Part shown: positions 1,777 through 63,140 of the stretch, piece by piece
Numbering within the stretch: the first letter of the stretch is position 1
Layout: each line of letters opens with the position of its first letter
Source of the DNA: an uncultured Planctomycetota bacterium
GTDB taxonomy: Bacteria; Planctomycetota; Planctomycetia; Gemmatales; Gemmataceae
Direction of reading: 5' to 3'
Length of the DNA: 64,000 nucleotides
Assembly: GCA_963849325.1 (NCBI GenBank)
Contig: CAWKHF010000006.1
Location: forward strand, 384,001-448,000
The notes under the pieces: model-generated
Told to the model about the DNA's origin: nothing
What the model saw: the letters and a program-made list of their open reading frames with translations, nothing else
Databases searched by the model: none
Made by a program: the position numbers and the translations under genes

Positions 1777-3240
1777 TCAGCGAATCGCGCGCGGCGCTTT
1801 CTGCCCCTTGGGGATCTTGGTCGTGTACGCGCGCCCCTTCATGCGCTCCTGAAAATCGGCGCGGGCGTCCTGGAGAGCCTGCGGATCTTGCAGCAGATCG
1901 ACGGCGCTGAGGGCCAGCACTTTGGCGGCGACCAGCAATCCCTTGTGCCCGATAGGCGAACCGATGGCGGCGACGTTCTGCCAGCTGTGCCCTGGACTGC
2001 CGGCCGCGAAGCAGACCGTATCCAGCCCGGAGGTCGGTACCTGCCAGCTGATGTCGCCCACGTCGGTGGAACCGCCGTCGGCGGGGTACGGTTTCTCCGG
2101 CAGCGGCTCGATGCTGTCATGCAGCGGCTGGCGTTCTTTGAGGGAGAACTCGGTTCGCAGCGGCTCTTGCAAGCGGCGCGCGAGTTCGCGGTCGGAATCG
2201 TCGAACTTCGGCGGCCCGACGAGGCGGAAGTTGCGCAGGACGACGCGCGACAGCGGCAGGTTCGGGATGATCTCGTGGCAGTCCGTATCGATGTGGACCG
2301 ACACTTTCGTCCGGCTCATCTTGGCCGCGCCCTCGGCGATGTCGCCCAGCCAATCGAAGTTGCGTTCGACGTCCTCATGGACATTGGCGCGGACGAAGTA
2401 CCACACCTGGGCGGTGGCCGGCACCACGTTCGGCTGAGCGCCGCCGTTGGTGATGACGTAGTGCAGACGACTGGTCTCCTTGACGTGCTCGCGCATGTAG
2501 TTGGCGCCGACGTTCATCAGCTCGACGCCGTCGAGCGCGCTGCGGCCCTTCTCGGGACTGCCGGAGGCGTGGGCCGGCAGACCGCGGAAGGTGAACTTGG
2601 CCGAGATCAGCGCCTTGGTGGACAGGTAGGCGACGCGGTTCTTGGTGCCGGGGTGCCAGTGCAGGCAGGCGTCGAGGTCGCGGAACTGGCCGTCCAGAGC
2701 CATGTACACCTTGCCGATGACGGTCTCCTCCGCCGGCGTACCGTAGAGGCGGATGGTGCCGTGAAGATGGTGCTTGTCGAGAGCGTCCTTGACGGCCAGG
2801 GCGGCGCCGACGGCGGCGGTGCCCAGGGCGCAATGTCCGCAGCCGTGTCCGGCGTCCTGTCCGGGGATGGCCTTGCGCATGCCTCCGCCGGCCTGCTGCG
2901 ACAGCTCCGGCAGGGCGTCGTACTCGGCGAGGATGCCGAGGACCGGCTTGCCCGAGCCATACTCGGCGACGAACGCCGTCGGCATGTCGCTGACGCCTTC
3001 CTTGACGCGGAAACCTGCCTTCTTCAGCACACTCGCCAGACGCGCCGCCGAACGGTGTTCCTGCAAACCCAGCTCGGCGTAGGTCCAAATGTCCTGGTTG
3101 ACGGCCACCAACTCGGGACGCAGGTTGTCCAGGTAACGAAGAATGTCCTGCTGGAGGGGCGTCGCTTTCGCCGGTTCCTCGGCCCGGCATGCCCGTGCGG
3201 AACAGGTGGCGGCGAGGGCGAGCAGTACGAGAGAACGCAT
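1777..3240 (-). CDS. M20 family amidohydrolase (AbgB-like) with N-terminal signal peptide
   Basis: LAEYDALP, GHGCGH, GTPAEE, GSTDVGDISW motifs; ATG after a GAGGAG RBS. Confidence 0.9.
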   Translation of the reverse strand: MRSLVLLALAATCSARACRAEEPAKATPLQQDILRYLDNLRPELVAVNQDIWTYAELGLQEHRSAARLASVLKKAGFRVKEGVSDMPTAFVAEYGSGKPVLGILAEYDALPELSQQAGGGMRKAIPGQDAGHGCGHCALGTAAVGAALAVKDALDKHHLHGTIRLYGTPAEETVIGKVYMALDGQFRDLDACLHWHPGTKNRVAYLSTKALISAKFTFRGLPAHASGSPEKGRSALDGVELMNVGANYMREHVKETSRLHYVITNGGAQPNVVPATAQVWYFVRANVHEDVERNFDWLGDIAEGAAKMSRTKVSVHIDTDCHEIIPNLPLSRVVLRNFRLVGPPKFDDSDRELARRLQEPLRTEFSLKERQPLHDSIEPLPEKPYPADGGSTDVGDISWQVPTSGLDTVCFAAGSPGHSWQNVAAIGSPIGHKGLLVAAKVLALSAVDLLQDPQALQDARADFQERMKGRAYTTKIPKGQKAPRAIR

Positions 3241-3397: not shown

Positions 3398-4457
3398 TTA
3401 GCTCTTCGTGATCTCGCGCAGCAGCACCGTGGCATAACTCCCGGCCGGCAGCGTGAAGCTCAGACACACGCCCTCGGCGTCCACCTCCGCCGTCAAGTCG
3501 TCCACGTAGACCAGATTATGCCGCCGCGTGCCCGCCAGCAGCTTGCCGAAGGCGTGAAACGCCGCCGGTGACACGCCGGCATCTTGCAAGACCTGCTCTT
3601 CGCGCTCGGCCGCCGTGCCGGCGGCGCGGAACATCTTCCGGCCGAACATCGGCCCCGCCGGCACGATCTCGCGCGCCTCCAGCCGGGCCTGCTCGCGATG
3701 TACGTCCTCGGCCACGAACAGGCCGCCGAACGGCCAGCGCGCCATCACGTCGCCGGCAAGCACACGGCGGAGCAGGCCGTCCGCCATCCGCCGGGCCAGG
3801 CCGTGGTTGAACAGGGCCGACTGCGCCGCCGACAGAGCCAACTTGCGCAGAAAGGGACTGCGGAGGTTCGCCTTCAAGCCGGCCGGCGGAGGTTCCTGAC
3901 GCAGCAGCGCCAGACCGAGCCGAACCGTTTCGCCCTCGTGGCCAAACCGCTGCGGCCCGTAGAAGTTGGCCAGGCCGTCACGCCGCAGGCGCTCGATCAG
4001 GAGGGGCAGACGTTCGCCGGCGTCCACCGTCACGTCGCGCACGCGGATACGGAAGCGATTGCCGTGCAGGTGGCCGGGCTTGAGCTTGTTGCCGTGCCAG
4101 CTCGACGTTCAACAAGCGGATCCCATCGCCATCGAGTTGACTCAGACGGGCCTCGGCGCGGGCCGGCACCGATACCATCTGCCGCGTCACCGCTTGCCGG
4201 TCCTTCAGGCCCGCCGTGCCCACTTCGGACGGCGAAACGTCAAGGCGGCGCGCGATCTGGCGCACGAAGTATTCGGCGCCCATGTCGCGCTTTTCGACCC
4301 ACAAGAACAGGTGATCGCCGCTACCGGAGGGCGGGTAGGCCGGCACCTCCTCGACCTCGAAATCCTCCAGCCGCTCCTTGATGCGGCCGCCGATACCGGG
4401 CAGGTCGGTCGTTGCCCAAGGCGGCGGTGTCAGCGGATCGAAGACCGGAATGTTCAT
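3398..4457 (-). CDS. truD: tRNA pseudouridine(13) synthase TruD (frameshifted)
   Basis: EDFEVEE, GTAGLKDRQAVTRQ, NFYGPQRFG and FTLPAGSYATVLLRE spread across two frames. Confidence 0.93.
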
Positions 4458-4771
4458 GGTGGCAAGACTCGCGCTTCGTACACGAAACCTCCGCTACTGT
4501 ACCGCATTTTCACGTGGAAATCTCTTGGTGAATGGGTCGGGCCTGGCTATAGTCATCTACGTTCGCCCCCATCGCTTCGACATCTCGATTCACGCCGGTT
4601 TCCGCTGCCGGTCTCGTGCAGACGGTGCAGCCCAGAAACCCTTCGACCTCGGCCGACCCCGGCCGTCCGGAGGGGCTTCGATGGCGCTGCGTTTCCCTTC
4701 CTTCCCTTTTGCTGCTTTTCCACGTCGGCCGCTGCCACGCGCCAGCCGGCCGACAACCCGCGAGGTACACC

Positions 4772-54388: not shown

Positions 54389-56245
54389 CTAATCGTTATC
54401 GGGATGATGATTGAGGGCGCGCGAGCTGAGACGCGCCAGGAAGCGTCTTTTCTGCTCGCCGGTCAGCTCCTTGGTGTAGCGTTTGCGCGTCGCGTCGAGC
54501 CAGCGGACAGGACGCTCGCCGTAGTCGGTCACGACGCGCGTCAGCACCGGGCCGGGGTGATCGAGGGCGGCGTGGAGTCCGCCGCACAAATCGCCCGGCC
54601 CGGTGATCTCCACGTATTCCAGCCCGAAGGCGTGAGCCAGGGCGGCGTAATCCAGGTGGGCCAGCATTGTCGCCGTCGTGCGGCGGTACGCCTTGAGCTG
54701 CAACGCCTGCATGTAGTGAAACGCCCGATCGTCCAGGATGAAGAACTTGACCGGCAGACCCTCGCGCGCCGCCGTGGACAGTTCCATCGCCGTCATGAGG
54801 AAACAGCCGTCGCCGGTGAGGGTCACGACCTGCCGGCCGAAATGGACGCGCTGCGCGCCGATGGCGGCGGGGACCGACCAGCCCATCGACTGATTGTCGG
54901 TTGGGTTGAAGTAAGTGCGCGGCTGGAGCACCGTGAACGCCTCGGCGGCCCAGTGCTCCGAACAGCTGACATCGACGAAGACGAGGGCGTCCGGGCAGGT
55001 GGCCTTGCGCAGCGCCAGGATGAAGGCCATCGGATCGACGCCGCAACGGTTGTAGCATTTGGCGTGCTCGGCGGCGTCCTCGCCCTTCCATTTGTGGATG
55101 CAGGCGACGAGGTCGTTATTGGGCGGACGGCGGATGTCGTCGGCATGGTCGAGAAGGCGGTCGAGGAAGACGCCGGCGTCGGCGTTGACGCACACCTCGG
55201 TCTTGAGGATGCGGCCGATGTTCTTGGGATTGATGTCCACGTGGATGATGTGCGGACTCTGCGGGATCGAGTAGAAGGCGGTCGAGACCTCGCTGTAGCG
55301 GACGCCGATGGCCAGTACCACGTCCACCTTGTTGAAGGCGTTCTCGGCCGTGTGAGTGCCCTGCGGGCCGTAGCCCCAGCCGACGGCCAACGGATGACAC
55401 TCGCTGACGACGCCCTTGCCCGAAACGCTGGTGGCGATCGGCGCTTGCAGCACCTCGGCCACATTCACCAGTGACTCCGTGTAGTCCATGCAGCCCATGC
55501 CGGCGTAGATGCCGACCTTCCAGACGCGATTGCTGAGCAATTGCAAGGCGCAGTGAAAGGCGCCCTCGTCGAAGGGCAGATCGCACGGGGCCAGCGGCAG
55601 GCAATCGTACTTGCACGTGTCGATCAGCAGCGTGTACGGCACGACGACGGCGGTCGGACCCGGTTCGCCGCACATCGCCAGACGAAAAGCCTGGCGCACC
55701 GCGTTGGGAATCTCACAGGCATGGCAAACCTCGAAGACGCCCTTGCACACCTGCTGGAGCAGACCGACCTGCGGCAGTTCGTGGACCTGGAAGGGGCGAT
55801 ACTTGTCGCCTCGGGCCACGTCGCCGACGATGGCCACGATCGGCACGCTGTCCAGCAGCGCCTCGCCAAGTCCGCTGAGCGAATTGGTGACGCCCGGTCC
55901 CGGAACAATGGCGATGACACCGGGCCGGCCGGTGCTGCGCGCAACGCCGTCGGCCATGTACGCGGCCGACATCTCATGCGTCACCAGCAGATAAGGGAGG
56001 TGCTGGCTCTTCATTTCGTCCCACAGTTCGTTCTCCTGGGCGCCGGGGATGCCGAAGACACAGGGCACGCCTTCGGTTTTCAGGGTCGCCACCAGCGCCG
56101 CCGCTCCGGTCATCTTGCCGGCGATGACTTCCGGCGGCGCCTTGTGGGCGGCGTCGGCCGGTCCCGGCCGCCCCGCCGGCAGCGAAACCAGGCATCCGGC
56201 GGCCATCGATTTCAGGACGGTTCGGCGCGAAACGGGCTGTGGCAT
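54389..56245 (-). CDS. ThDP-binding enzyme (acetolactate synthase large subunit-like) with twin-arginine signal
   Basis: FGIPG, HEMSAAYMADG, PGPGVTN, SMGWSVPAAIGA, GDGCFLM; N-terminal SRRTVLK. Confidence 0.9.
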   Translation of the reverse strand: MPQPVSRRTVLKSMAAGCLVSLPAGRPGPADAAHKAPPEVIAGKMTGAAALVATLKTEGVPCVFGIPGAQENELWDEMKSQHLPYLLVTHEMSAAYMADGVARSTGRPGVIAIVPGPGVTNSLSGLGEALLDSVPIVAIVGDVARGDKYRPFQVHELPQVGLLQQVCKGVFEVCHACEIPNAVRQAFRLAMCGEPGPTAVVVPYTLLIDTCKYDCLPLAPCDLPFDEGAFHCALQLLSNRVWKVGIYAGMGCMDYTESLVNVAEVLQAPIATSVSGKGVVSECHPLAVGWGYGPQGTHTAENAFNKVDVVLAIGVRYSEVSTAFYSIPQSPHIIHVDINPKNIGRILKTEVCVNADAGVFLDRLLDHADDIRRPPNNDLVACIHKWKGEDAAEHAKCYNRCGVDPMAFILALRKATCPDALVFVDVSCSEHWAAEAFTVLQPRTYFNPTDNQSMGWSVPAAIGAQRVHFGRQVVTLTGDGCFLMTAMELSTAAREGLPVKFFILDDRAFHYMQALQLKAYRRTTATMLAHLDYAALAHAFGLEYVEITGPGDLCGGLHAALDHPGPVLTRVVTDYGERPVRWLDATRKRYTKELTGEQKRRFLARLSSRALNHHPDND

Positions 56246-56434
56246 GGGAGCCTCCTGACAGGCGGGTCGCTTGCACGGCAGCGCGAAGCCATGAGTAGCT
56301 ACCACCTTTATCGGCTTTTCCGGTCTCGCCCTTTATGCGGAGTTTGCCGATTTGTCGATGCCAGGTATGCCTTTCGAGGGTCTGGTTAGGCGCCAGGGAG
56401 GATCGCTCCTACAATCACGGTAGGAGGTGCAGCC

Positions 56435-56659
56435 ATGACACCCGTATCGTCCGTGGTCCATAGTGACCCCGACATCCTGGGCGGCGTGCCGGTGTTCGTT
56501 GGCACCCGCGTGCCCGTCCGGGCGCTGATCGACTACCTCGGCGGCGGCCAGCCGCTCTCCGAGTTTCTAGAGGACTTCCCGTCTGTCAGCCGCGAACAGG
56601 CGGTGGCTGCCCTGCGGCTGGCTGCTGAGGCACTGATGGCCCATGCGAATTCTGCTTGA
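56435..56659 (+). CDS. DUF433 antitoxin
   Basis: DPDILGGVPVFVGTRVPV..L.DYL..G.....FLEDFPSV. Confidence 0.92.
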   Translation: MTPVSSVVHSDPDILGGVPVFVGTRVPVRALIDYLGGGQPLSEFLEDFPSVSREQAVAALRLAAEALMAHANSA

Positions 56660-56965
56660 CGAGTGTGTGCCCCAGCGGCTGGGCCGGGAGCTGACCGGCC
56701 ACGCCGTCCAGACGGTCCCGCAGCAGGGCTGGTCGGGCAAGAAGAACGGAGAGTTGCTCGGCCTCATGGCGGCGGCCGGGTTCGAGGTGCTGCTGACGGT
56801 GGACCAGGGCATCCCGCACCAGCAGAACCTGCCGCGGCCGGGGTGGCGGTGGTGGTGATGGCCGGCCCGAGCAACCAACTCGTGGATCTGGTGCCGCTAG
56901 TGCCTGGCGTAGTGGCCGCGCTGGGAACGATTCAGCCAGGCGATGTGGTCGAGATCCGCACCTAA
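56643..56965 (+). CDS. DUF5615 PIN-like toxin (frameshifted)
   Basis: MRILLDECVP, GWSGKKNGELL, LLTVD..IPHQQNL; overlaps the DUF433 gene. Confidence 0.9.
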
Positions 56966-56992
56966 CAAGTTGTTGCAGTAGACCCGCCATGC

Positions 56993-57056
56993 AGCTTTGC
57001 CACGCATTAGCGGTTTTTTAGCTCAATGCGTGGCAACTTTCCTCAATGCGTTGCAG
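56993..57056. repeat. Left end of element 1: TIR plus two 14-bp subterminal motifs
   Basis: TCAATGCGTGGCAA at 57023-36 and TCAATGCGTTGCAG at 57043-56 (20-bp period). Confidence 0.88.
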
Positions 57057-57100
57057 GAAACGCGCCAGAACTGTAGTTCCAAAAAGCGAACATTTTTTGC

Positions 57101-57129
57101 TTGACAGGTGTCAACATTCCGGCTATCGT
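57101..57129 (+). promoter_or_regulatory. Sigma70 promoter with palindromic operator; probably a leaderless transcript
   Basis: TTGACA-17 bp-TATCGT; TTGACA-GG-TGTCAA palindrome on the -35; ATG 6 nt after the -10. Confidence 0.75.
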
Positions 57130-57135
57130 TCCTGA

Positions 57136-57418
57136 ATGGGAAGGCCACGGCATCCGAATAAGCACATCGAGAAGGCCGTCCAATACGCGGAGGCTCTCGG
57201 ATGGCGCGTCGAGCTATCAAATGGTCATGCTTGGGGCCATTTGCTCTGCCCACAGAGTACCCGTGAAGGGTGCATTGTCGGGGTCTGGTCTACTCCCAAA
57301 AACGCTGAAAACCACGCTCGCCACATCCGGCGTGAAGTTGATATTTGTCCTCATGGAACACCTAGCAAAGGCAACGTTGAAGAACTACAGTGTGCAAGAA
57401 AAAAGGGGAGGGAAATGA
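57136..57418 (+). CDS. HicA-like putative toxin
   Basis: HPNKHIEKAVQYAEALGWRV...GHAWG.L.CP...VWSTP; probably ends at the ATGA overlap (57415-18), the fusion being an indel. Confidence 0.6.
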
Positions 57419-57981
57419 AAACCGGGAAGCCGTGTGAGCGGGAGCACGACTTTGTCCTGGTCCTGACTGGCATTAACGAGTTGACGCCATCAGTGGAGGA
57501 AGCTCTGTTTGAGGCCGGCTGCGATGACGCTACGCCTAGCGTCCGATTCGGTCGAGTATACCTAACCTTCTCGCGTTGTGCCGCATCTCTGAAAGATGCA
57601 ATCCTGAGCGCAATTCAGGACGTGAGGGCGGCCAAGATCGGGGCAGATGTACTCCGAGTCGATCACTGCAACCTTGTCACGCAGGCCGACATTGCCCGTA
57701 AAATCAACCGAAGTCGGCAGCTTGTTCATCAATACTACACTGGAGTCCGTGGCCCTGGCAACTTCCCGCCCCCGGTTTGTCACATATGCGATGAGTCGCC
57801 ACTTTGGTATTGGTGCGAGGTTGCCTATTGGCTTTGGGAGAACGACATGATTACAGAGGATGTGTGTCGGGAGGCTGAACATGTCGCCTTCATCAATACT
57901 GTACTAGAGCTTAAAAACCAACGAGAGATTGATCCGAAGTTAGCAGAAGAGGTACTCCAATCAATCGGTGCAGCTCAGTAA
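57415..57981 (+). CDS. Putative antitoxin (HicB-like N-terminus plus HTH)
   Basis: GGGGAGGG RBS; LFEAGCDDA, LVTQADIARKINRSRQLVHQY, FPPP, PLW.W.EVA.WL. Confidence 0.7.
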   Translation: MKTGKPCEREHDFVLVLTGINELTPSVEEALFEAGCDDATPSVRFGRVYLTFSRCAASLKDAILSAIQDVRAAKIGADVLRVDHCNLVTQADIARKINRSRQLVHQYYTGVRGPGNFPPPVCHICDESPLWYWCEVAYWLWENDMITEDVCREAEHVAFINTVLELKNQREIDPKLAEEVLQSIGAAQ

Positions 57982-57999
57982 GTTTTTGCTTCCAGTATG

Positions 58000-58034
58000 C
58001 GGCAAGTCCCAGTCTAATAAGCCGGGACTTGCCG
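58000..58034. terminator. Hairpin between the convergent antitoxin and transposase genes
   Basis: CGGCAAGTCCC...GGGACTTGCCG, an 11-bp stem. Confidence 0.65.
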
Positions 58035-58035
58035 T

Positions 58036-59321
58036 TTAACTAGGTCGCTGCATTCTTAGGATCATCCCCGCGCCGTCCTGTCGCTCCTCCGGCTCCTCAT
58101 CCTTCCAGAATACCGGCACGATGCCAAGCGTTTCTTGCTCCTGAATCAAGCAGGACAGGTTGTGGCAGAGGATTTTGCACAGCACTTCGTTGACCATCGA
58201 CATTTCGTTCTTGCTCGCCACCCTGTCGCCGAACTTCCGCTTGATGGCGCGAGAAGGTGATCTCGACGTTGCTGCGCTTGTGATAATGGGTCATGTACTC
58301 TTCCTGGTTGCACTGAAAGTAGTGGTAGGCTTTCTCGAAAGCGCCGCCAATCGCGCCCGTGCTGTTGGACTTGAAGGCAATGAACGCCTGCCCGCCGCAA
58401 GCTGCAACCTCTTCAAAGTTCTCCACGGAAAGGTAAGCCTTGTCGGCGCTCACTTCGCCGATCTCAAAATGCGTCTTCGTCTCGCGGACCAGCGGGACGA
58501 ACTGAGGGCAATCATGGGCATCCTTGTCCAGAATGCGGACGGCAGTAACGACATTCGTTTTCACGCCGGAGGCGATATGCGTCTTGACCCAGATGCCGCG
58601 CGTCCGCGTGACGCCGTACTTGTGGTCGTACCAGCGCTCGTAGACGGCAAGTGCTGAACCCGCTGCTGTCGATGGCGAAGTCTTTTTCGACCGGATCGCA
58701 ACGGACGGGCCTTTCGCCGACGAGCTGCTTGAGAACCGGCGTGTAGTACGGGTCTTCCATGAACGTTGTCGCCTTCATGCCGGGAATCAGCTTGCGGGTG
58801 AATCCTTTCTCGTAGGCTTCCTGCAAGGTCTGTGGAGAAGCGGCGGGCGCTGTAAACCGCAGTAAACCTTGTAGGCCATCGTGAAGACGGCATCACTAGA
58901 ACGCGTGCGGCTTCGTGCCCGTCGTGCTTGCCGGCCGCTGCGCGATCTGGCACGACGGCGAGCAGAGGTCGTGCAAGAGGACGCGGAGGCGGCGCTTCTC
59001 CGTGGCTTGCGCCATGTTGTACTTCGGCCAGTCCTGCTTGTAGGTCTTCCGCTCGGTGAGCGTAATCGTCTTCGTCTCAATCACGGTGCCATCCGGCAGC
59101 ACATCCCTCTTGTGGACGATGGACGCGGCGTAGAAGTGCTTGCAGGTGTTGCCGCCGTCAACGTGATCCAGGCAAGTGCAGGTCTTCGCTTCCAGGTTGA
59201 CGCGGTACGTCGCGTTACCGCTCTTGTTGGACTGGCTCGGCACAAGCCAGGTGCCGTCGTTCATGCGGTTCAGCCGACAGGTCGCCGCGATGATGAGTCC
59301 ACGCTGCTCTCTGGCGTCCAT
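58036..59321 (-). CDS. Transposase: N-terminal SWIM Zn finger plus IS4/IS5-type (DDE_Tnp_1-like) DDE domain (several frameshifts)
   Basis: WLVPSQS..YRVNL...CTCLDH.....CKH; FAIDSSGF; SADKAY; YHKRSNVE; NEVLCKILCHN. Confidence 0.88.
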
Positions 59322-59357
59322 TTTCTCAATCTCCGGGACAACGCTCTTGTCCACATT

Positions 59358-59400
59358 ATTGTATACACCGGAGACAGATTTGTAAACATATTGGTAGACA
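59358..59400 (-). promoter_or_regulatory. Transposase promoter with repeated TGTnnAC(A) boxes
   Basis: TTTACA-17 bp-TACAAT; boxes TGTCTACC, TGTTTACA and TGTATACA, with TGTGGACA just downstream. Confidence 0.7.
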
Positions 59401-59443
59401 GTTTTCCTAGTTTTTCTCGGCTTTTTTCGTAATCGCTTGCCAG

Positions 59444-59677
59444 TTACAGAAGGTCTTTCAGGTTCCGGTTGATGGCCCAAGCAAAGTCGAGAAGAGTGGA
59501 AAGACGGGGATCGTAGTCCGATTCAGGATTGAGCAGGCGAGACACTGCCTGCCGTGCCCCTCCCTTAGCAAGCCCCATGCGGAGGCCGATCTCTTCCTGC
59601 GTCATGCCGCTTTCTTCGGCTGCCTGACGCATTCTCTGTCGGACAGAGGCGACCGCGAGATGGTTCACCTTCCCCAT
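59444..59677 (-). CDS. Xre/cI-like HTH regulator, probably leaderless
   Basis: GMTQEEIGLRMG...RQAVSRLLN....DPRLSTL; upstream TTGCCC-17 bp-TAGACT, then ATG 6 nt later. Confidence 0.88.
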   Translation of the reverse strand: MGKVNHLAVASVRQRMRQAAEESGMTQEEIGLRMGLAKGGARQAVSRLLNPESDYDPRLSTLLDFAWAINRNLKDLL

Positions 59678-59808
59678 GTTGTAAGTCTACACCTTCGTAG
59701 TCATTCGGGCAACATGAACGTTGGCAACAGTAACTGCCACGAAAAGACACCCTGCTGTGGAGAATGGTCCTCGTAACTCCTTTTGCGTCACCGTCTTGCG
59801 ATGTTCTA

Positions 59809-59837
59809 TTGACATAAGCCCTTATCGAGCTTACAAT
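59809..59837 (+). promoter_or_regulatory. Strong sigma70 promoter for the cargo operon
   Basis: TTGACA-17 bp-TACAAT. Confidence 0.8.
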
Positions 59838-59888
59838 TAGGACGAGTGTAGGAGCACTAGATGCCCCCGTCCTCAGCTGAGGTCCGGT

Positions 59889-62445
59889 GTGAAATTCACA
59901 AGCGCAGTGCAGGAGCAATCATTCCGCGCGGTGCTGCGCGCGTTGGAGCGGTTGGGTTACACTCGCGACGTTTTGTTGAAAGAGGAGTATCCCTTCGACG
60001 ACTGGTTCTTGCCCGGCAACCAAGAGCGAGTCGCCCCAGCCGTGGCCTTCGGCCAGACCCCTCTCGCTTACGACAGCGCTTGCTTCGCGGTGGTGGTGTC
60101 CAACGGCCAGCAAGGCCCCGAACTGGTCAACCAGTATCGTGCCTTGGGTGCCCCCCTCGCTATCGAAGTTCGCCCTGACAAGGTAGTACACTGGCGAGTC
60201 AGCCGAGCCATGTCGGCTGGAGATGAGCAGTTCGTCATCCCCCCGGATCGGGTAGAGGATGCCTTCCAGGAGAATGCGCACAAGTGGAACCCGGAAAGTG
60301 TTTTTCGGGCAAAGAACATCGCCGCAACATCTCCCCGCCAAGCCGACTTCGTGGACCTCGGCTTAATCCCTGCACTGGAGCAACACGTTCGCGCCAAACT
60401 CGATCCCTTGCTGCGGGAGGTATTGCACGCGGGGAAGAAGGAGTATGAATACCGCAAGGGAGGACCGCCGGACCCAGACAAACTGTACCGCCTTGTATTC
60501 CGGACCCTCGCGGGGAAGATGATGTCTGAGCGGGGGGTGTTAGGCTTCCACTCGGCCAACGGTGCGCCGAACGCCCCGGATCTCTAGACAAGGTTGCCAA
60601 ATTCTACAGTGATTCCCAGCCGGTCGTTGCCGATGTGTCAACCCAACGGGTTGTCGTGGAAAGGCTGTGGCAGAGCATCAGCCTGAGAAATCTGTCCGTC
60701 GAAGTGCTGGCGTTCGTCTGGGAGAACACCCTTGTAACCAGGGATATTCGCGAGGAACGAGGCATTCACGCCACCCCGCCCAGCATCGCCCGATACCTCG
60801 TTCACCGCCTGCCTATCCAAGACATTCCACAGGCTGAGCGGCGCATTGTCGAACCTTGCTGTGGGAGCGGCACGTTCTTGGTTGCGGCCCTCCAGCGACT
60901 GCGTGAACTGCTACCGCCTTCGATTGACCCGCGGAGTCGGCACAAGTATTTCACCGACATGCTCAGCGGGTTCGACAATGAAACCTTCGGCTTGGAGGTG
61001 GCGCGTCCAGCCTAATGCTTGCCGACTTCCCGAACCCGAACGGGTGGGCGCTCGTCGAGGAAGACGTTTTTGGGACGCCCGAGCAGTCGCCGCAGTTCCA
61101 CGCCGCTTTGCAAGCAGCCCGCGTGGTTCTGTGCAACCCGCCATTCGAGCCGTTCAAGCCACGGGACCGCGCTTTGTACGAGTTACGCTCCGTCCATAAG
61201 CCGGTGGAACTATTGCAGCGAGTCCTCGACCAACTCGGAAATCAGGGGCTTCTTGGCTTCGTACTTCCCCAGCAACTACTCAATGGGGTGAGTTACCGCA
61301 GCATTCGAGAGAGACTGGCCGAGCGGTATGAAGAAATCGAGTTGGTCGGCTTGCCGGATAAGGTCTTCGAGAAGTCTGAACACGAAACAGCTCTCCTGCT
61401 GGCGAAGGTCCCGCGAACCCATCGGGGGCCGCTGTCCATTCTCCACCGCAAGGTCGAGGACAGGGGTTGGCCTCTCTTTAACGCTTACTCCCAGGTCAGC
61501 CGAGAAGACGCCGGAGCCAAGACCCCAGCGCAAGCATCCGACAACATCGGGATACCCGACCTCCAAAGCATCTGGACGCGCACTGGCCGGATCACCCACG
61601 GTCGGCGATGTTACGGGCGGGAACGTCCACCGCGGCATCGAATGGAATCTTCCACTGGACGAGAACAAGTGAGCTGTTGATCTCCAAGGCTGCACAGCCC
61701 GAATATGGCGCGGCGTGCCGCGTGCGCGAAGAGGCTTTTACTCCTACCAGTGCCCATCTCTCTCATACCTCTGCATGAAGGAGGAGTACCGAAGAAGGAA
61801 CGCTTTCAACTTGCCTTGGAATCTACCCAAGGTAATCATGAACGCGAAGCGGAAGTGCGCGGTCCCTGGCGGATTGCGGCATACGCCGACGAGGCCGGAC
61901 TGGTTTGCTACCAGACGTACACCGCCCTGTGGCCGTCTGGGGATTGGACTGCGACGGCTCTGGCCGCAGTCCTCAACGGGCCGGTTGCGAATGCGTTCGT
62001 TGCGTCCCACGAAGGCAATCGTGACATCACCGTCGAGACAGTCAAGGCAATTCCGGTTCCGCCGCTGACGAATGCCCTGAAAGGGGGGCTTACGAAGTTG
62101 GTAGCCGAGTATCGGACAGCCGCCGAGCGAATGGAGCTTGAAGTCAGGTCGGGCGAGCGCTCAGCGCGCGACATCCTTCGCGAGATTGACGCGGCCATCC
62201 TGAGAGCCTACGACCTCTCGCCTAGGCTCGAACATGAACTGCTCAACTATTTCAGCGGGTATGGCACGAAGAGGCCAGTGCCCTTCAACTTCGGCGACTA
62301 CTACCCGGCCGACTTTAGCTCGCATATCCCCTTATGGATGTTTCTCTCGCCAGAGTTCCAGAGAGGCAACCCGCAGGACATCTTGTCGAAAGCTCCTAAG
62401 ATCACCGATCCGGCATTGATCGACGCATTCCGTGAAGTGGAGTAA
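59889..62445 (+). CDS. Type IIG-like N6-adenine DNA methyltransferase with TRD (frameshifted)
   Basis: RGIHATP, VEPCCGSGTFL (motif I), LCNPPF (motif IV), GFVLP, TRD-like AVLNGPVA and EIDAAILRAYDL. Confidence 0.85.
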
Positions 62446-62451
62446 CCTGCT

Positions 62452-63010
62452 TTGCCAAACGGAAAACTGCTCGACAATAACGTGATTTCGGTTCTTGCGA
62501 GTGCCAAGGACCCAAGGAGGCCGATAGCGGAGGCACACCTAGCCGCGTCTGGTTTCGGGCCGATTGTCTTTCCGTGCATCGCTATCGGCGAAATCGAATT
62601 TGGGATGATGAAGGCGACAAACCCAGACGCGGCACAACAGGCGAGCATGAGGGCATTCCTTAAGCGCTATCCGATTCTCCCTTTCGACCATCACACCGTC
62701 GAACCGTATGCGATGATTCGCGCAAAAACTCTGGCTCATGTTCGGCACTGCGAAGGTGCGCGGTCACGCCGAAAAACTCCCAGAAGAGTTGAAAGACCGC
62801 GCAACAGGACTCTGCCTAGGTATCGATGAACGAGACTTACTCATCGCCAGCATCGCGGTAGCGTTTAACCTATTCCTGGCGACGATGGATCGCAATGACG
62901 GGATGCGGCGGATTGAGGCAGCTGCGGCGGTCCTTGAAGCAGAAGGCAAGCCTGTTTGCCTCCGGATTGAGGATTGGTCGAAACCGTTGCCCGGCGCGTC
63001 TGACTATTGA
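62452..63010 (+). CDS. PIN-domain (VapC-like) nuclease (frameshifted)
   Basis: LLDNNVIS, IGEIEFG, IDERDLLIASIA, LATMD; starts 6 bp after the methylase stop. Confidence 0.82.
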
Positions 63011-63011
63011 G

Positions 63012-63140
63012 TCAAAACGTTGCAGACCGCCTCAAAACGTTGCAGCTCGCCAATGCGTTGCAAAGCTCCGCCATGCAGCTTTGCCACGCATTGACACTTT
63101 TTCACGTCAATGCGTGGCAACTTGCCTCAATCCGTTGCAG
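63012..63140. repeat. Junction: right end of element 1, 9-bp target duplication, left end of element 2
   Basis: TCAAAACGTTGCAG twice (63012, 63032); CAATGCGTTGCAAAGCT | CCGCCATGC | AGCTTTGCCACGCATTG; TCAATGCGTGGCAA at 63107; TCAATCCGTTGCAG at 63127. Confidence 0.92.

Follow-up and report, generated by a model that had tools for sequence, protein, structure and literature searches.

Stacked SWIM-DDE cargo transposons in the attC site of a putative toxin-antitoxin cassette from a Gemmataceae genome, with a candidate rule for their insertion position

The cassette arrays of integrons are seen as reservoirs that the integron integrase IntI shuffles, and the described site-specific invaders of their attC sites are IS110-family elements and group IIC introns. 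Whether a DDE transposon that has terminal inverted repeats (TIRs) as well as a target duplication can also be directed to an attC is the question raised by a stretch of 64,000 nucleotides (the window) from the genome (G000) of an uncultured member of the Gemmataceae (GenBank assembly GCA_963849325.1, contig CAWKHF010000006.1, positions 384,001 to 448,000). In this stretch a DUF433/DUF5615 putative toxin-antitoxin (TA) pair is followed by two cargo transposons, A and B, which are separated and bounded by copies of the same 9 bp, CCGCCATGC. Extended coordinates continue the window numbering past 64000. The initial annotation had placed the transposon target inside an attC-like site and had proposed a new class of attC parasite. 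The reading that we consider probable as a whole is that of a solitary cassette with a decayed attC, two independent insertions into it, and targeting by transposases that take end-like sequences for pseudo-ends.

The TA cassette and its rejoined attC site

Comparison sites were taken from arrays adjoining TIGR02249-positive genes in the same-genus genome G193 and in G043. Eight IntI-adjacent loci were examined, with clear arrays in L152 and L153 (plus L147, one of four short loci); the IntI-adjacent repeat units in G060 and the inverted repeats in L150/L152 yielded no usable attC model. A relaxed attC finder and profiles replaced a strict RYYYAAC/GTTRRRY regular expression combined with minimum free energy (MFE) folding, which was dropped because it also missed the positive control, the genuine dfrA17 attC of a class 1 integron (L157). 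With the relaxed finder, sites of 97-101 nt were recovered in arrays next to IntI in G043 and in G193 (where L152 has five and L153 one). Nine array sites aligned with invariant GCCGAAC ... GTTCGGC and folded as textbook attCs, with a 7-bp R''/R' stem, unpaired spacers and an L stem carrying two extrahelical bases; their consensus fold has 21 pairs, four of them with compensatory changes. These sites formed the starting profile, to which the attCs of the window genome itself (median 16 of 21 Watson-Crick pairs) were added to give an enlarged one.

The interrupted site was rejoined in silico: A and B were cut out, and of the three copies of CCGCCATGC one was kept (Table 1). The left arm of the rejoined site reads ACCTAAC AAGTT GTTGCAGTAGAC CCGCCATGCG..., and the right arm past the stack ...CGCGTAAGCCGGTTGCTGGGC. 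The rejoined site scored 23.4 bits (E 4.6e-4, 16-Mb search) with the G193/G043 profile, against 11.4 and 12.9 bits for the unjoined halves, and 33.3 bits (E 6.8e-7, profile positions 3-87) with the enlarged profile. Its L''/L' arms form nine Watson-Crick and four G.T pairs out of 14 L pairs, and G and A are kept at the two extrahelical positions. The L'' consensus of the kin sites is GCTGCAGCAGAC followed by CGG..., and the R''-spacer-L'' part of the dfrA17 attC is much like that of the window site, with an identical L'' box, GTTGCAG. On these alignments the rejoined site is homologous in both arms to chromosomal integron attCs of Gemmataceae, and we regard the reading of the locus as attC plus cassette as solid. 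The initial annotation was thus borne out as to the attC in both arms, with an R' end that is, judged from the profile, decayed; of the continuation which it predicted beyond the last duplication, the L' box pairs and GTTRRRY is matched only loosely.

Table 1. Coordinates of the cassette, its attC, the stacked elements and related features of the same genome
Feature	Position	Strand	Remarks
GTTAGGC	56385..56391	+	left cassette boundary, between G and TTAGGC
DUF433 gene, putative antitoxin	56435..56659	+	first cassette gene; Pfam PF04255, 64.3 bits, E 9.1e-18
DUF5615/PIN_10-like gene, putative toxin	56643..56965	+	two frames: 56643-56858 and 56663-56965
attC R'' box ACCTAAC	56960..56966	+	overlaps TAA stop; aligns to profile positions 3-7; kin R'' GCCGAAC
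attC unpaired spacer AAGTT	56967..56971	+	alignment A1 columns 8-12, unpaired in consensus structure
attC L'' arm GTTGCAGTAGAC	56972-56983	+	followed by first CCGCCATGC
First CCGCCATGC	56984-56992	+	first copy of 9-bp duplication
Element A, 6,075-bp cargo transposon	56993..63067	+	16-bp TIRs; subterminal GTTGCA-type repeats at both ends
Unknown 281-aa open reading frame (ORF)	57136-57981		element A
Element A transposase	58097..59480	-	N-terminal SWIM region + DDE_Tnp_1, at least 3 frames
Small helix-turn-helix (HTH) gene	59444-59677	-	element A
Element A cargo	59889..63010	+	unknown 232-aa ORF; methyltransferase pieces; PIN gene
N6-adenine/MmeI-like DNA methyltransferase	60635-62445	+	in pieces; element A cargo
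PIN-domain gene	62452-63010	+	two frames; element A cargo
Second CCGCCATGC	63068..63076	+	between right tip of A and left tip of B
Element B, diverged relative of A	63077..extended 66791	+	decayed transposase, tRNA-Thr(GGT), two ORFs; then third CCGCCATGC
tRNA-Thr(GGT)	extended 64563-64637 (L002 8563-8637)	-	cargo in element B
Third CCGCCATGC	extended 66792-66800 (C6:450792-450800)
attC remainder past stack	extended 66801-66875		L' arm CGCGTAAGCCGGTTGCTGGGC, 14-nt spacer, GTTGAGG
attC clusters, examples	C12:1173.4k/1174.1k; C5:64-67k; C5:706-713k; C6:46.9/47.6k; C8:199-200k		C6 cluster outside the window
1.47-kb insertion sequence (IS) copies	C5:713265; C5:67156; C7:540355; C12:960143		L162-L165

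Both 7-mers that the initial annotation had named as bounds of the TA pair, GTTAGGC and ACCTAAC, are present on its two sides. In the window genome the density of GTTRRRY motifs, like that of RYYYAAC motifs, is about 0.45 per kb, and the rough joint chance of a GTTRRRY at most 80 nt upstream together with an RYYYAAC at most 21 nt from the stop is 3e-4; taken alone, the two 7-mers are weak evidence for a cassette. The pair is identified by homology as a real, solitary integron cassette, as had been proposed, because its homologues adjoin attCs at three of three other loci (L112-L114; only nearby at L112). In L113 an attC (4411-4509) is followed by a DUF433 homologue at 4527, in L114 an attC (1452-1357, minus strand) is followed by a homologue of the whole pair (1347-843, minus strand), and in L112 attCs lie 1.2-1.6 kb downstream. 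TTAGGC at the 5' end of the cassette complements the cassette's own R'' (A)CCTAA, as would be expected for a formerly circularised unit.

Once the transposons are removed, the cassette extends from about 56386 to about extended 66869. The left flank is conserved up to about 56357 only in all 10 other same-genus genomes, and the right flank from about extended 66881 in G202, the furthest-reaching match, and from farther downstream in the other eight matching genomes. Homology to the G202 copy of the TA pair begins at 56406; that copy has the same 3' tail, with neither transposon nor TIR nearby, and its putative toxin is an intact 107-aa ORF. In the window the 71-aa first piece of the putative toxin scored 23.9 bits with PIN_10 and 18.8 bits with DUF5615, both under the Pfam cut-offs, and its frame split would be due to either a frameshift or an assembly error. 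Upstream of GTTAGGC a conserved intergenic region without an attC was found. A direct repeat of about 55 bp flanking the TA module was considered as an att duplication and rejected, being conserved upstream sequence that is present also in genomes with non-adjacent loci.

Between the same two genes, the syntenic locus of G177 contains a different TA pair, a RelE/HigB-like plus XRE HTH pair (L115, G177:C3:2219000-2225000, about 2340-3200) which comes after GTTGGGGC and ends with GCCTAAC; no recognisable attC accompanies it. TA cassettes may have settled repeatedly at this intergenic locus.

Elements A and B and their insertion register

Elements A and B lie in the same orientation and have in common a 16-bp TIR, AGCTTTGC(C/A)ACGCATT, of which the right-tip copy in B is diverged. 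The left end of A is AGCTTTGCCACGCATT and its right end the reverse complement of AGCTTTGCAACGCATT; at every element end there are, in addition, two or three GTTGCA-type repeats. A third close copy, C10 (C10:71028-71043...74453-74468), is flanked by GCTCCATCG and GCCCCATCG. The A transposase matched DDE_Tnp_1 with 33.6 bits and SWIM with 18.2 bits, the latter under cut-off, and reached 42 bits with NF033579 (IS5 family), the nearest NCBIfam model, under its cut-off of 140. The intact 424-aa homologue from G177 gave 59.1 bits with DDE_Tnp_1 and 97 bits with NF033579, again under 140. Homologues of the N-terminal transposase piece were found in 48 of 201 sampled family genomes; a search of the genome contig collection with this 194-aa piece returned no relative.

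Duplications of 9 bp flank A, B, C10, L072-L074, L076, L090 and the distant copies C5 and C4, with L075 and the distant copy C6 (flanks unmatched at 9 bp) as exceptions. On their domain matches and ends the elements are best described as IS5/IS903-like SWIM-DDE cargo transposons with 16-bp TIRs and 9-bp duplications. Identity between A and B is 62% at the transposase N-terminus (which in B has one TGA) and 80-95% in DNA segments; because A and B have diverged, the stack reflects two separate insertion events. The 16-nt TIR sequence is found also within tyrosine-recombinase genes, where it encodes ...SFATHLL... (including the window region 55541-56305). TIR pattern searches were contaminated by integrase genes because of this coding stretch, and pattern matches in tyrosine-recombinase genes or in other repeat families were left out of the flank analyses. 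Pattern scans of the genome collection and of metagenomes gave two matches each.

The insertion point follows the start of the L'' box at a distance of 12 nt, and the 9-bp duplication is immediately preceded by the GAC at A1 columns 22-24, which is invariant in the L'' arm. With a 33-nt matrix of attC left arms the window site scored 24.4 bits, a value reached at 36 of the 16.3 million positions scored in the window genome. The C10 site, into which the element is inserted in the opposite orientation relative to the window site, aligned in the identical register with 7.1 bits, a score as high being found at 336 of 16.3 million positions (p = 2.1e-5); it has no L' or R' partner, and its score with the full profile was 7.4 bits. 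In the window genome, the two independent sites of the close lineage are attC left arms or similar to them, and are used in the same register.

Among complete relatives in G177, G144 and G065, none of nine insertions was in an attC or attC-like arm (profile and matrix). None of the three distant copies in the window genome resembled an attC left arm (left-arm score only), and the miniature inverted-repeat transposable element C7 gave no attC match (profile only). A pattern composed of left arm, 9 nt and tip had the window itself as its sole exact match in 252 family genomes; junction matches with at most two mismatches (about 150) equalled the control count, and none of 30 inspected was real. 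With 0 of 9 relatives, 0 of 3 distant copies and no other confirmed junction, the enrichment of homologous insertions in attCs that the initial annotation expected was not found. Of its attC-targeting transposon class, the DDE transposase, the TIRs and the duplication inside an attC stand, and the absence of all 12 more distant insertions from attCs speaks against the targeting as a class property.

Explanations for the insertion position

Pseudo-end targeting appears the likeliest mechanism. The transposase would bind the GTTGCA-type repeats at its own ends, would take an end-like hexamer in target DNA for a pseudo-end, and would carry out strand transfer into the 9 bp whose first base lies 12 nt past the hexamer start. 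In the window the mimic would be the L'' box GTTGCAG, and two diverged family members would each have entered the L'' arm at the same 9 bp in separate events. The tip of the copy already resident would offer equal geometry to the next one, and because of this geometry a head-to-tail stack with a shared duplication would result. The insertions would split the attC hairpin, so that the cassette would become fixed in place and its excision by IntI would be lost.

We infer this mechanism from the two close sites and from a family pattern recognised post hoc. Of 47 distinct family flanks, picked by eye for family end architecture, 10 have an RTTKCA hexamer that reads toward the tip and has its start at a distance of 21 +/- 1 nt from it (expected 0.16% per flank), with the rule and its window set post hoc and the flanks partly related (L074/L075 share sequence). 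The distance corresponds to 12 nt plus the 9-bp duplication. The six ends of A, B and C10 together contain G[CT]TGCAG nine times, against a genome rate of 1.5e-4 per position, and 20 of 48 attC left arms have it too. At a real tip the hexamer lies 11 nt from the edge, and a neighbour 9 bp away gives the matching geometry, as at the A/B junction and in L161, an unrelated metagenome contig with a second stack of right tip, 9 bp and left tip. The insertion position is non-random, and what recurs across the family is not attC as such but an end-like hexamer whose distance from the tip is fixed.

Other flanks showed motifs of their own. In G144-type relatives (L084 5230-5412; L082, L024, L029, L022, L080) insertions lie beside AATGGATTGCA(C/T)TGCGC and then a GCGCACAC-like sequence, 24-27 nt from the tip; in L084 that motif is within a tandem repeat of about 79 bp. 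Recurrent intergenic palindromes, GTTTAGC-stem-loop-stem-GCTAAAC, were seen in other Gemmataceae (L095, L098, L105, L118/L123), and both flanks of a family element in G104 read GTTTAGCG(C/T)CCGC toward the tips; such a hairpin may be a target in G104.

Besides the post hoc nature of the hexamer rule, several observations weigh against the combined reading of decayed attC, independent insertions and pseudo-ends. The C10 hexamer, GCTGCG, does not fit RTTKCA; 37 of the 47 flanks lack the motif at -21 +/- 1, and a second flank group has ATTGCA at -24 to -27. At the attC, the R' candidate GTTGAGG ends in G instead of Y, lies 8-9 nt farther out than the consensus and forms 4 of 7 Watson-Crick pairs with R'', and the last 11-12 profile positions are unaligned in the rejoined site. 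In cassette arrays the TTRRRY part derives from the recombination partner, so that some R' mismatch is expected. The MFE fold of the 107-nt bottom strand leaves R''/R' unpaired (z = -0.84), and covariance model R1, which cannot span the 9.8-kb insertion, had no relevant match when the halves were submitted to it as truncated stretches. No second attC was found within the 16-kb locus L002 beyond the two halves, so that the locus, with its single attC, falls short of the two or more clustered attCs that define a cluster of attC sites lacking an integrase (CALIN). Frameshifts interrupt the transposase in each of the three close copies, and activity is thus putative. The peptidase gene 3' of the stack (extended 67036-69812, L002 11036-13812), conserved and secreted, with orthologues 81-87% identical, is distributed over at least four reading frames. 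Because this conserved neighbour is also frame-split, indel errors in the assembly are likely, and the frameshifts are therefore no proof of decay.

The main rival of pseudo-end targeting is a dedicated attC parasite, in which the lineage of A, B and C10 would be specific for the R''-L'' arm or its folded form and the hexamer rule of the relatives would be a separate matter. Such specificity is possible, since the C10 match extends into an R''-like box: both lineage sites match the attC left arm over 33 nt in the same register, including R''-like CT.ACAA, and the subterminal repeats share 13-nt identity with the left arm of the dfrA17 attC. We nevertheless consider it unlikely, because it relies on two sites, one of which (C10) has no L'/R' partner and a full-profile score of 7.4 bits, because at least 39 attCs of the window genome are free of the element, because 252 family genomes contain no other exact junction, and because the relatives keep to the hexamer geometry outside attCs. 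Somewhat less doubtful, though still tentative, is the wider proposal that the end-binding repeats of the SWIM-DDE lineage mimic the spacer-L'' arm and so make attCs landing pads; attC invasion would then have a third route, one that is DDE-based and involves a target duplication, and that would lock cassettes and load restriction-modification-like, TA and tRNA cargo into arrays.

Chance combined with stacking is improbable. A first landing would have been accidental, the second drawn by the resident end or by a local hot spot, and the resemblance of the C10 site a coincidence. This is consistent with the stack with a 9-bp spacer found elsewhere without an attC (L161), with the absence of the 12 more distant insertions from attCs, and with the report of ISs in a fourth of complete integrons (PMC4889954). 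Yet the attCs, about 39-50 in number and each about 100 bp long, cover roughly 0.06% of the genome, the exact register shared by the two sites and the per-position p value of C10 are hard to reach accidentally, and the hexamer recurs at -21 +/- 1 in 10 of 47 flanks. Least credible of all is that GTTGCAGTAGAC is no attC sequence but the relic right end of a third, decayed transposon copy carrying the TA pair as cargo. The left flank does resemble the right tip of B (alignment score 37, reached by 0 of 500 shuffles, in an alignment that includes the identical 9 bp), and the stretch 56290-56330 shows a weak similarity to a left end (p = 0.046 against A). A third decayed element is contradicted by the same 3' tail on the transposon-free TA copy of G202, by the conservation of the supposed left end as promoter-region sequence in all 10 other same-genus genomes, and by the attC match of both arms, including the sequence past the stack.

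Known attC invaders and the integrons of the Gemmataceae

In the literature listings and abstracts surveyed, no DDE transposon with TIRs and a duplication at a fixed attC position was found. IS1111-attC elements of the IS110 family, whose target choice is guided by a seeker RNA (PMC11187229), are likewise mobile elements at a fixed position of attC. They have a DEDD transposase, no such TIRs and no duplication, whereas the present elements combine DDE_Tnp_1, 16-bp TIRs, a 9-bp duplication, the L'' arm and cargo. DEDD_Tnp_IS110 plus Transposase_20 without a duplication, the mark of IS1111-attC, is absent from A and B and was found in a separate 1.47-kb IS of the same genome. This IS110-family element (337-aa ORF) has four copies, 98-99.9% identical, each at the same point of an attC L' arm, after GCTGCT and without duplication, and is a Gemmataceae counterpart of the IS1111-attC elements. 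Group IIC-attC introns (PMC3001079, PMC7923331) share with A and B the invasion of attCs; unlike them, they are retroelements that move via RNA, with no transposase, TIRs or duplication.

In mechanism the closest analogue is the IS1202 family (ISAjo2/ISAba71), with a DDE transposase, TIRs and a 5-bp duplication, which targets dif/pdif, inserts 5 bp from the tyrosine-recombinase site and has extra transposase-binding sites near its ends (PMC10132070). It differs in its TnsB-like transposase, 5-bp duplications, fixed orientation and Xer targets, the present element being known from two sites in both orientations. With the IS903 group of the IS5 family, for which 9-bp direct repeats are listed (PMC3281130 Table 2), the present elements have in common DDE_Tnp_1 and 9-bp repeats, together with short TIRs, and they fall under the NF033579 cut-off. 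Members of the IS903 group measure about 1.05 kb, whereas the present elements reach 2-6 kb with cargo and have multiple subterminal repeats. The IS903-group transposase has about 300 aa, in contrast to 420-550 aa with an N-terminal SWIM-like region here. IS30-type elements target sequences resembling their own ends, and IS26 in its targeted mode makes no duplication. IS26 has been described as an element that 'preferentially inserts adjacent to another IS26' (PMC4196232). Site choice by the resemblance or presence of an end is what is proposed here too; in the present case a 9-bp duplication separates the tips.

The family is rich in integrons: TIGR02249 IntI was detected above cut-off in 86 of 201 sampled family genomes, two of them of the same genus, and in none of 14 control genomes. 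The window genome (84.7% complete) has no integron integrase above cut-off and at least 39 attCs (E<1e-3, G193/G043 profile), many of them in pairs or clusters. A CALIN is defined by at least two attCs without an integrase, and singletons were discarded by the IntegronFinder authors as possible false positives (PMC4889954). The window genome resembles this state in its attCs, often paired or clustered, without IntI above cut-off; the window cassette differs in having a single attC, which is supported by homology to kin attCs. In three or four attCs (C5:954860, C7:540442, C12:879980, C12:1472002) R'' is replaced by a common sequence that ends in CATGAGTATC and is the start of an ORF on the opposite strand; it may represent a repeated cassette in inverted position or a different element that abuts the attC.

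If the pseudo-end rule is true, it would give a simple account of target choice by a cut-and-paste or copy-paste transposase. It would likewise explain the head-to-tail pile-up of elements, and how TA cassettes become fixed in chromosomes without an integrase after its loss.

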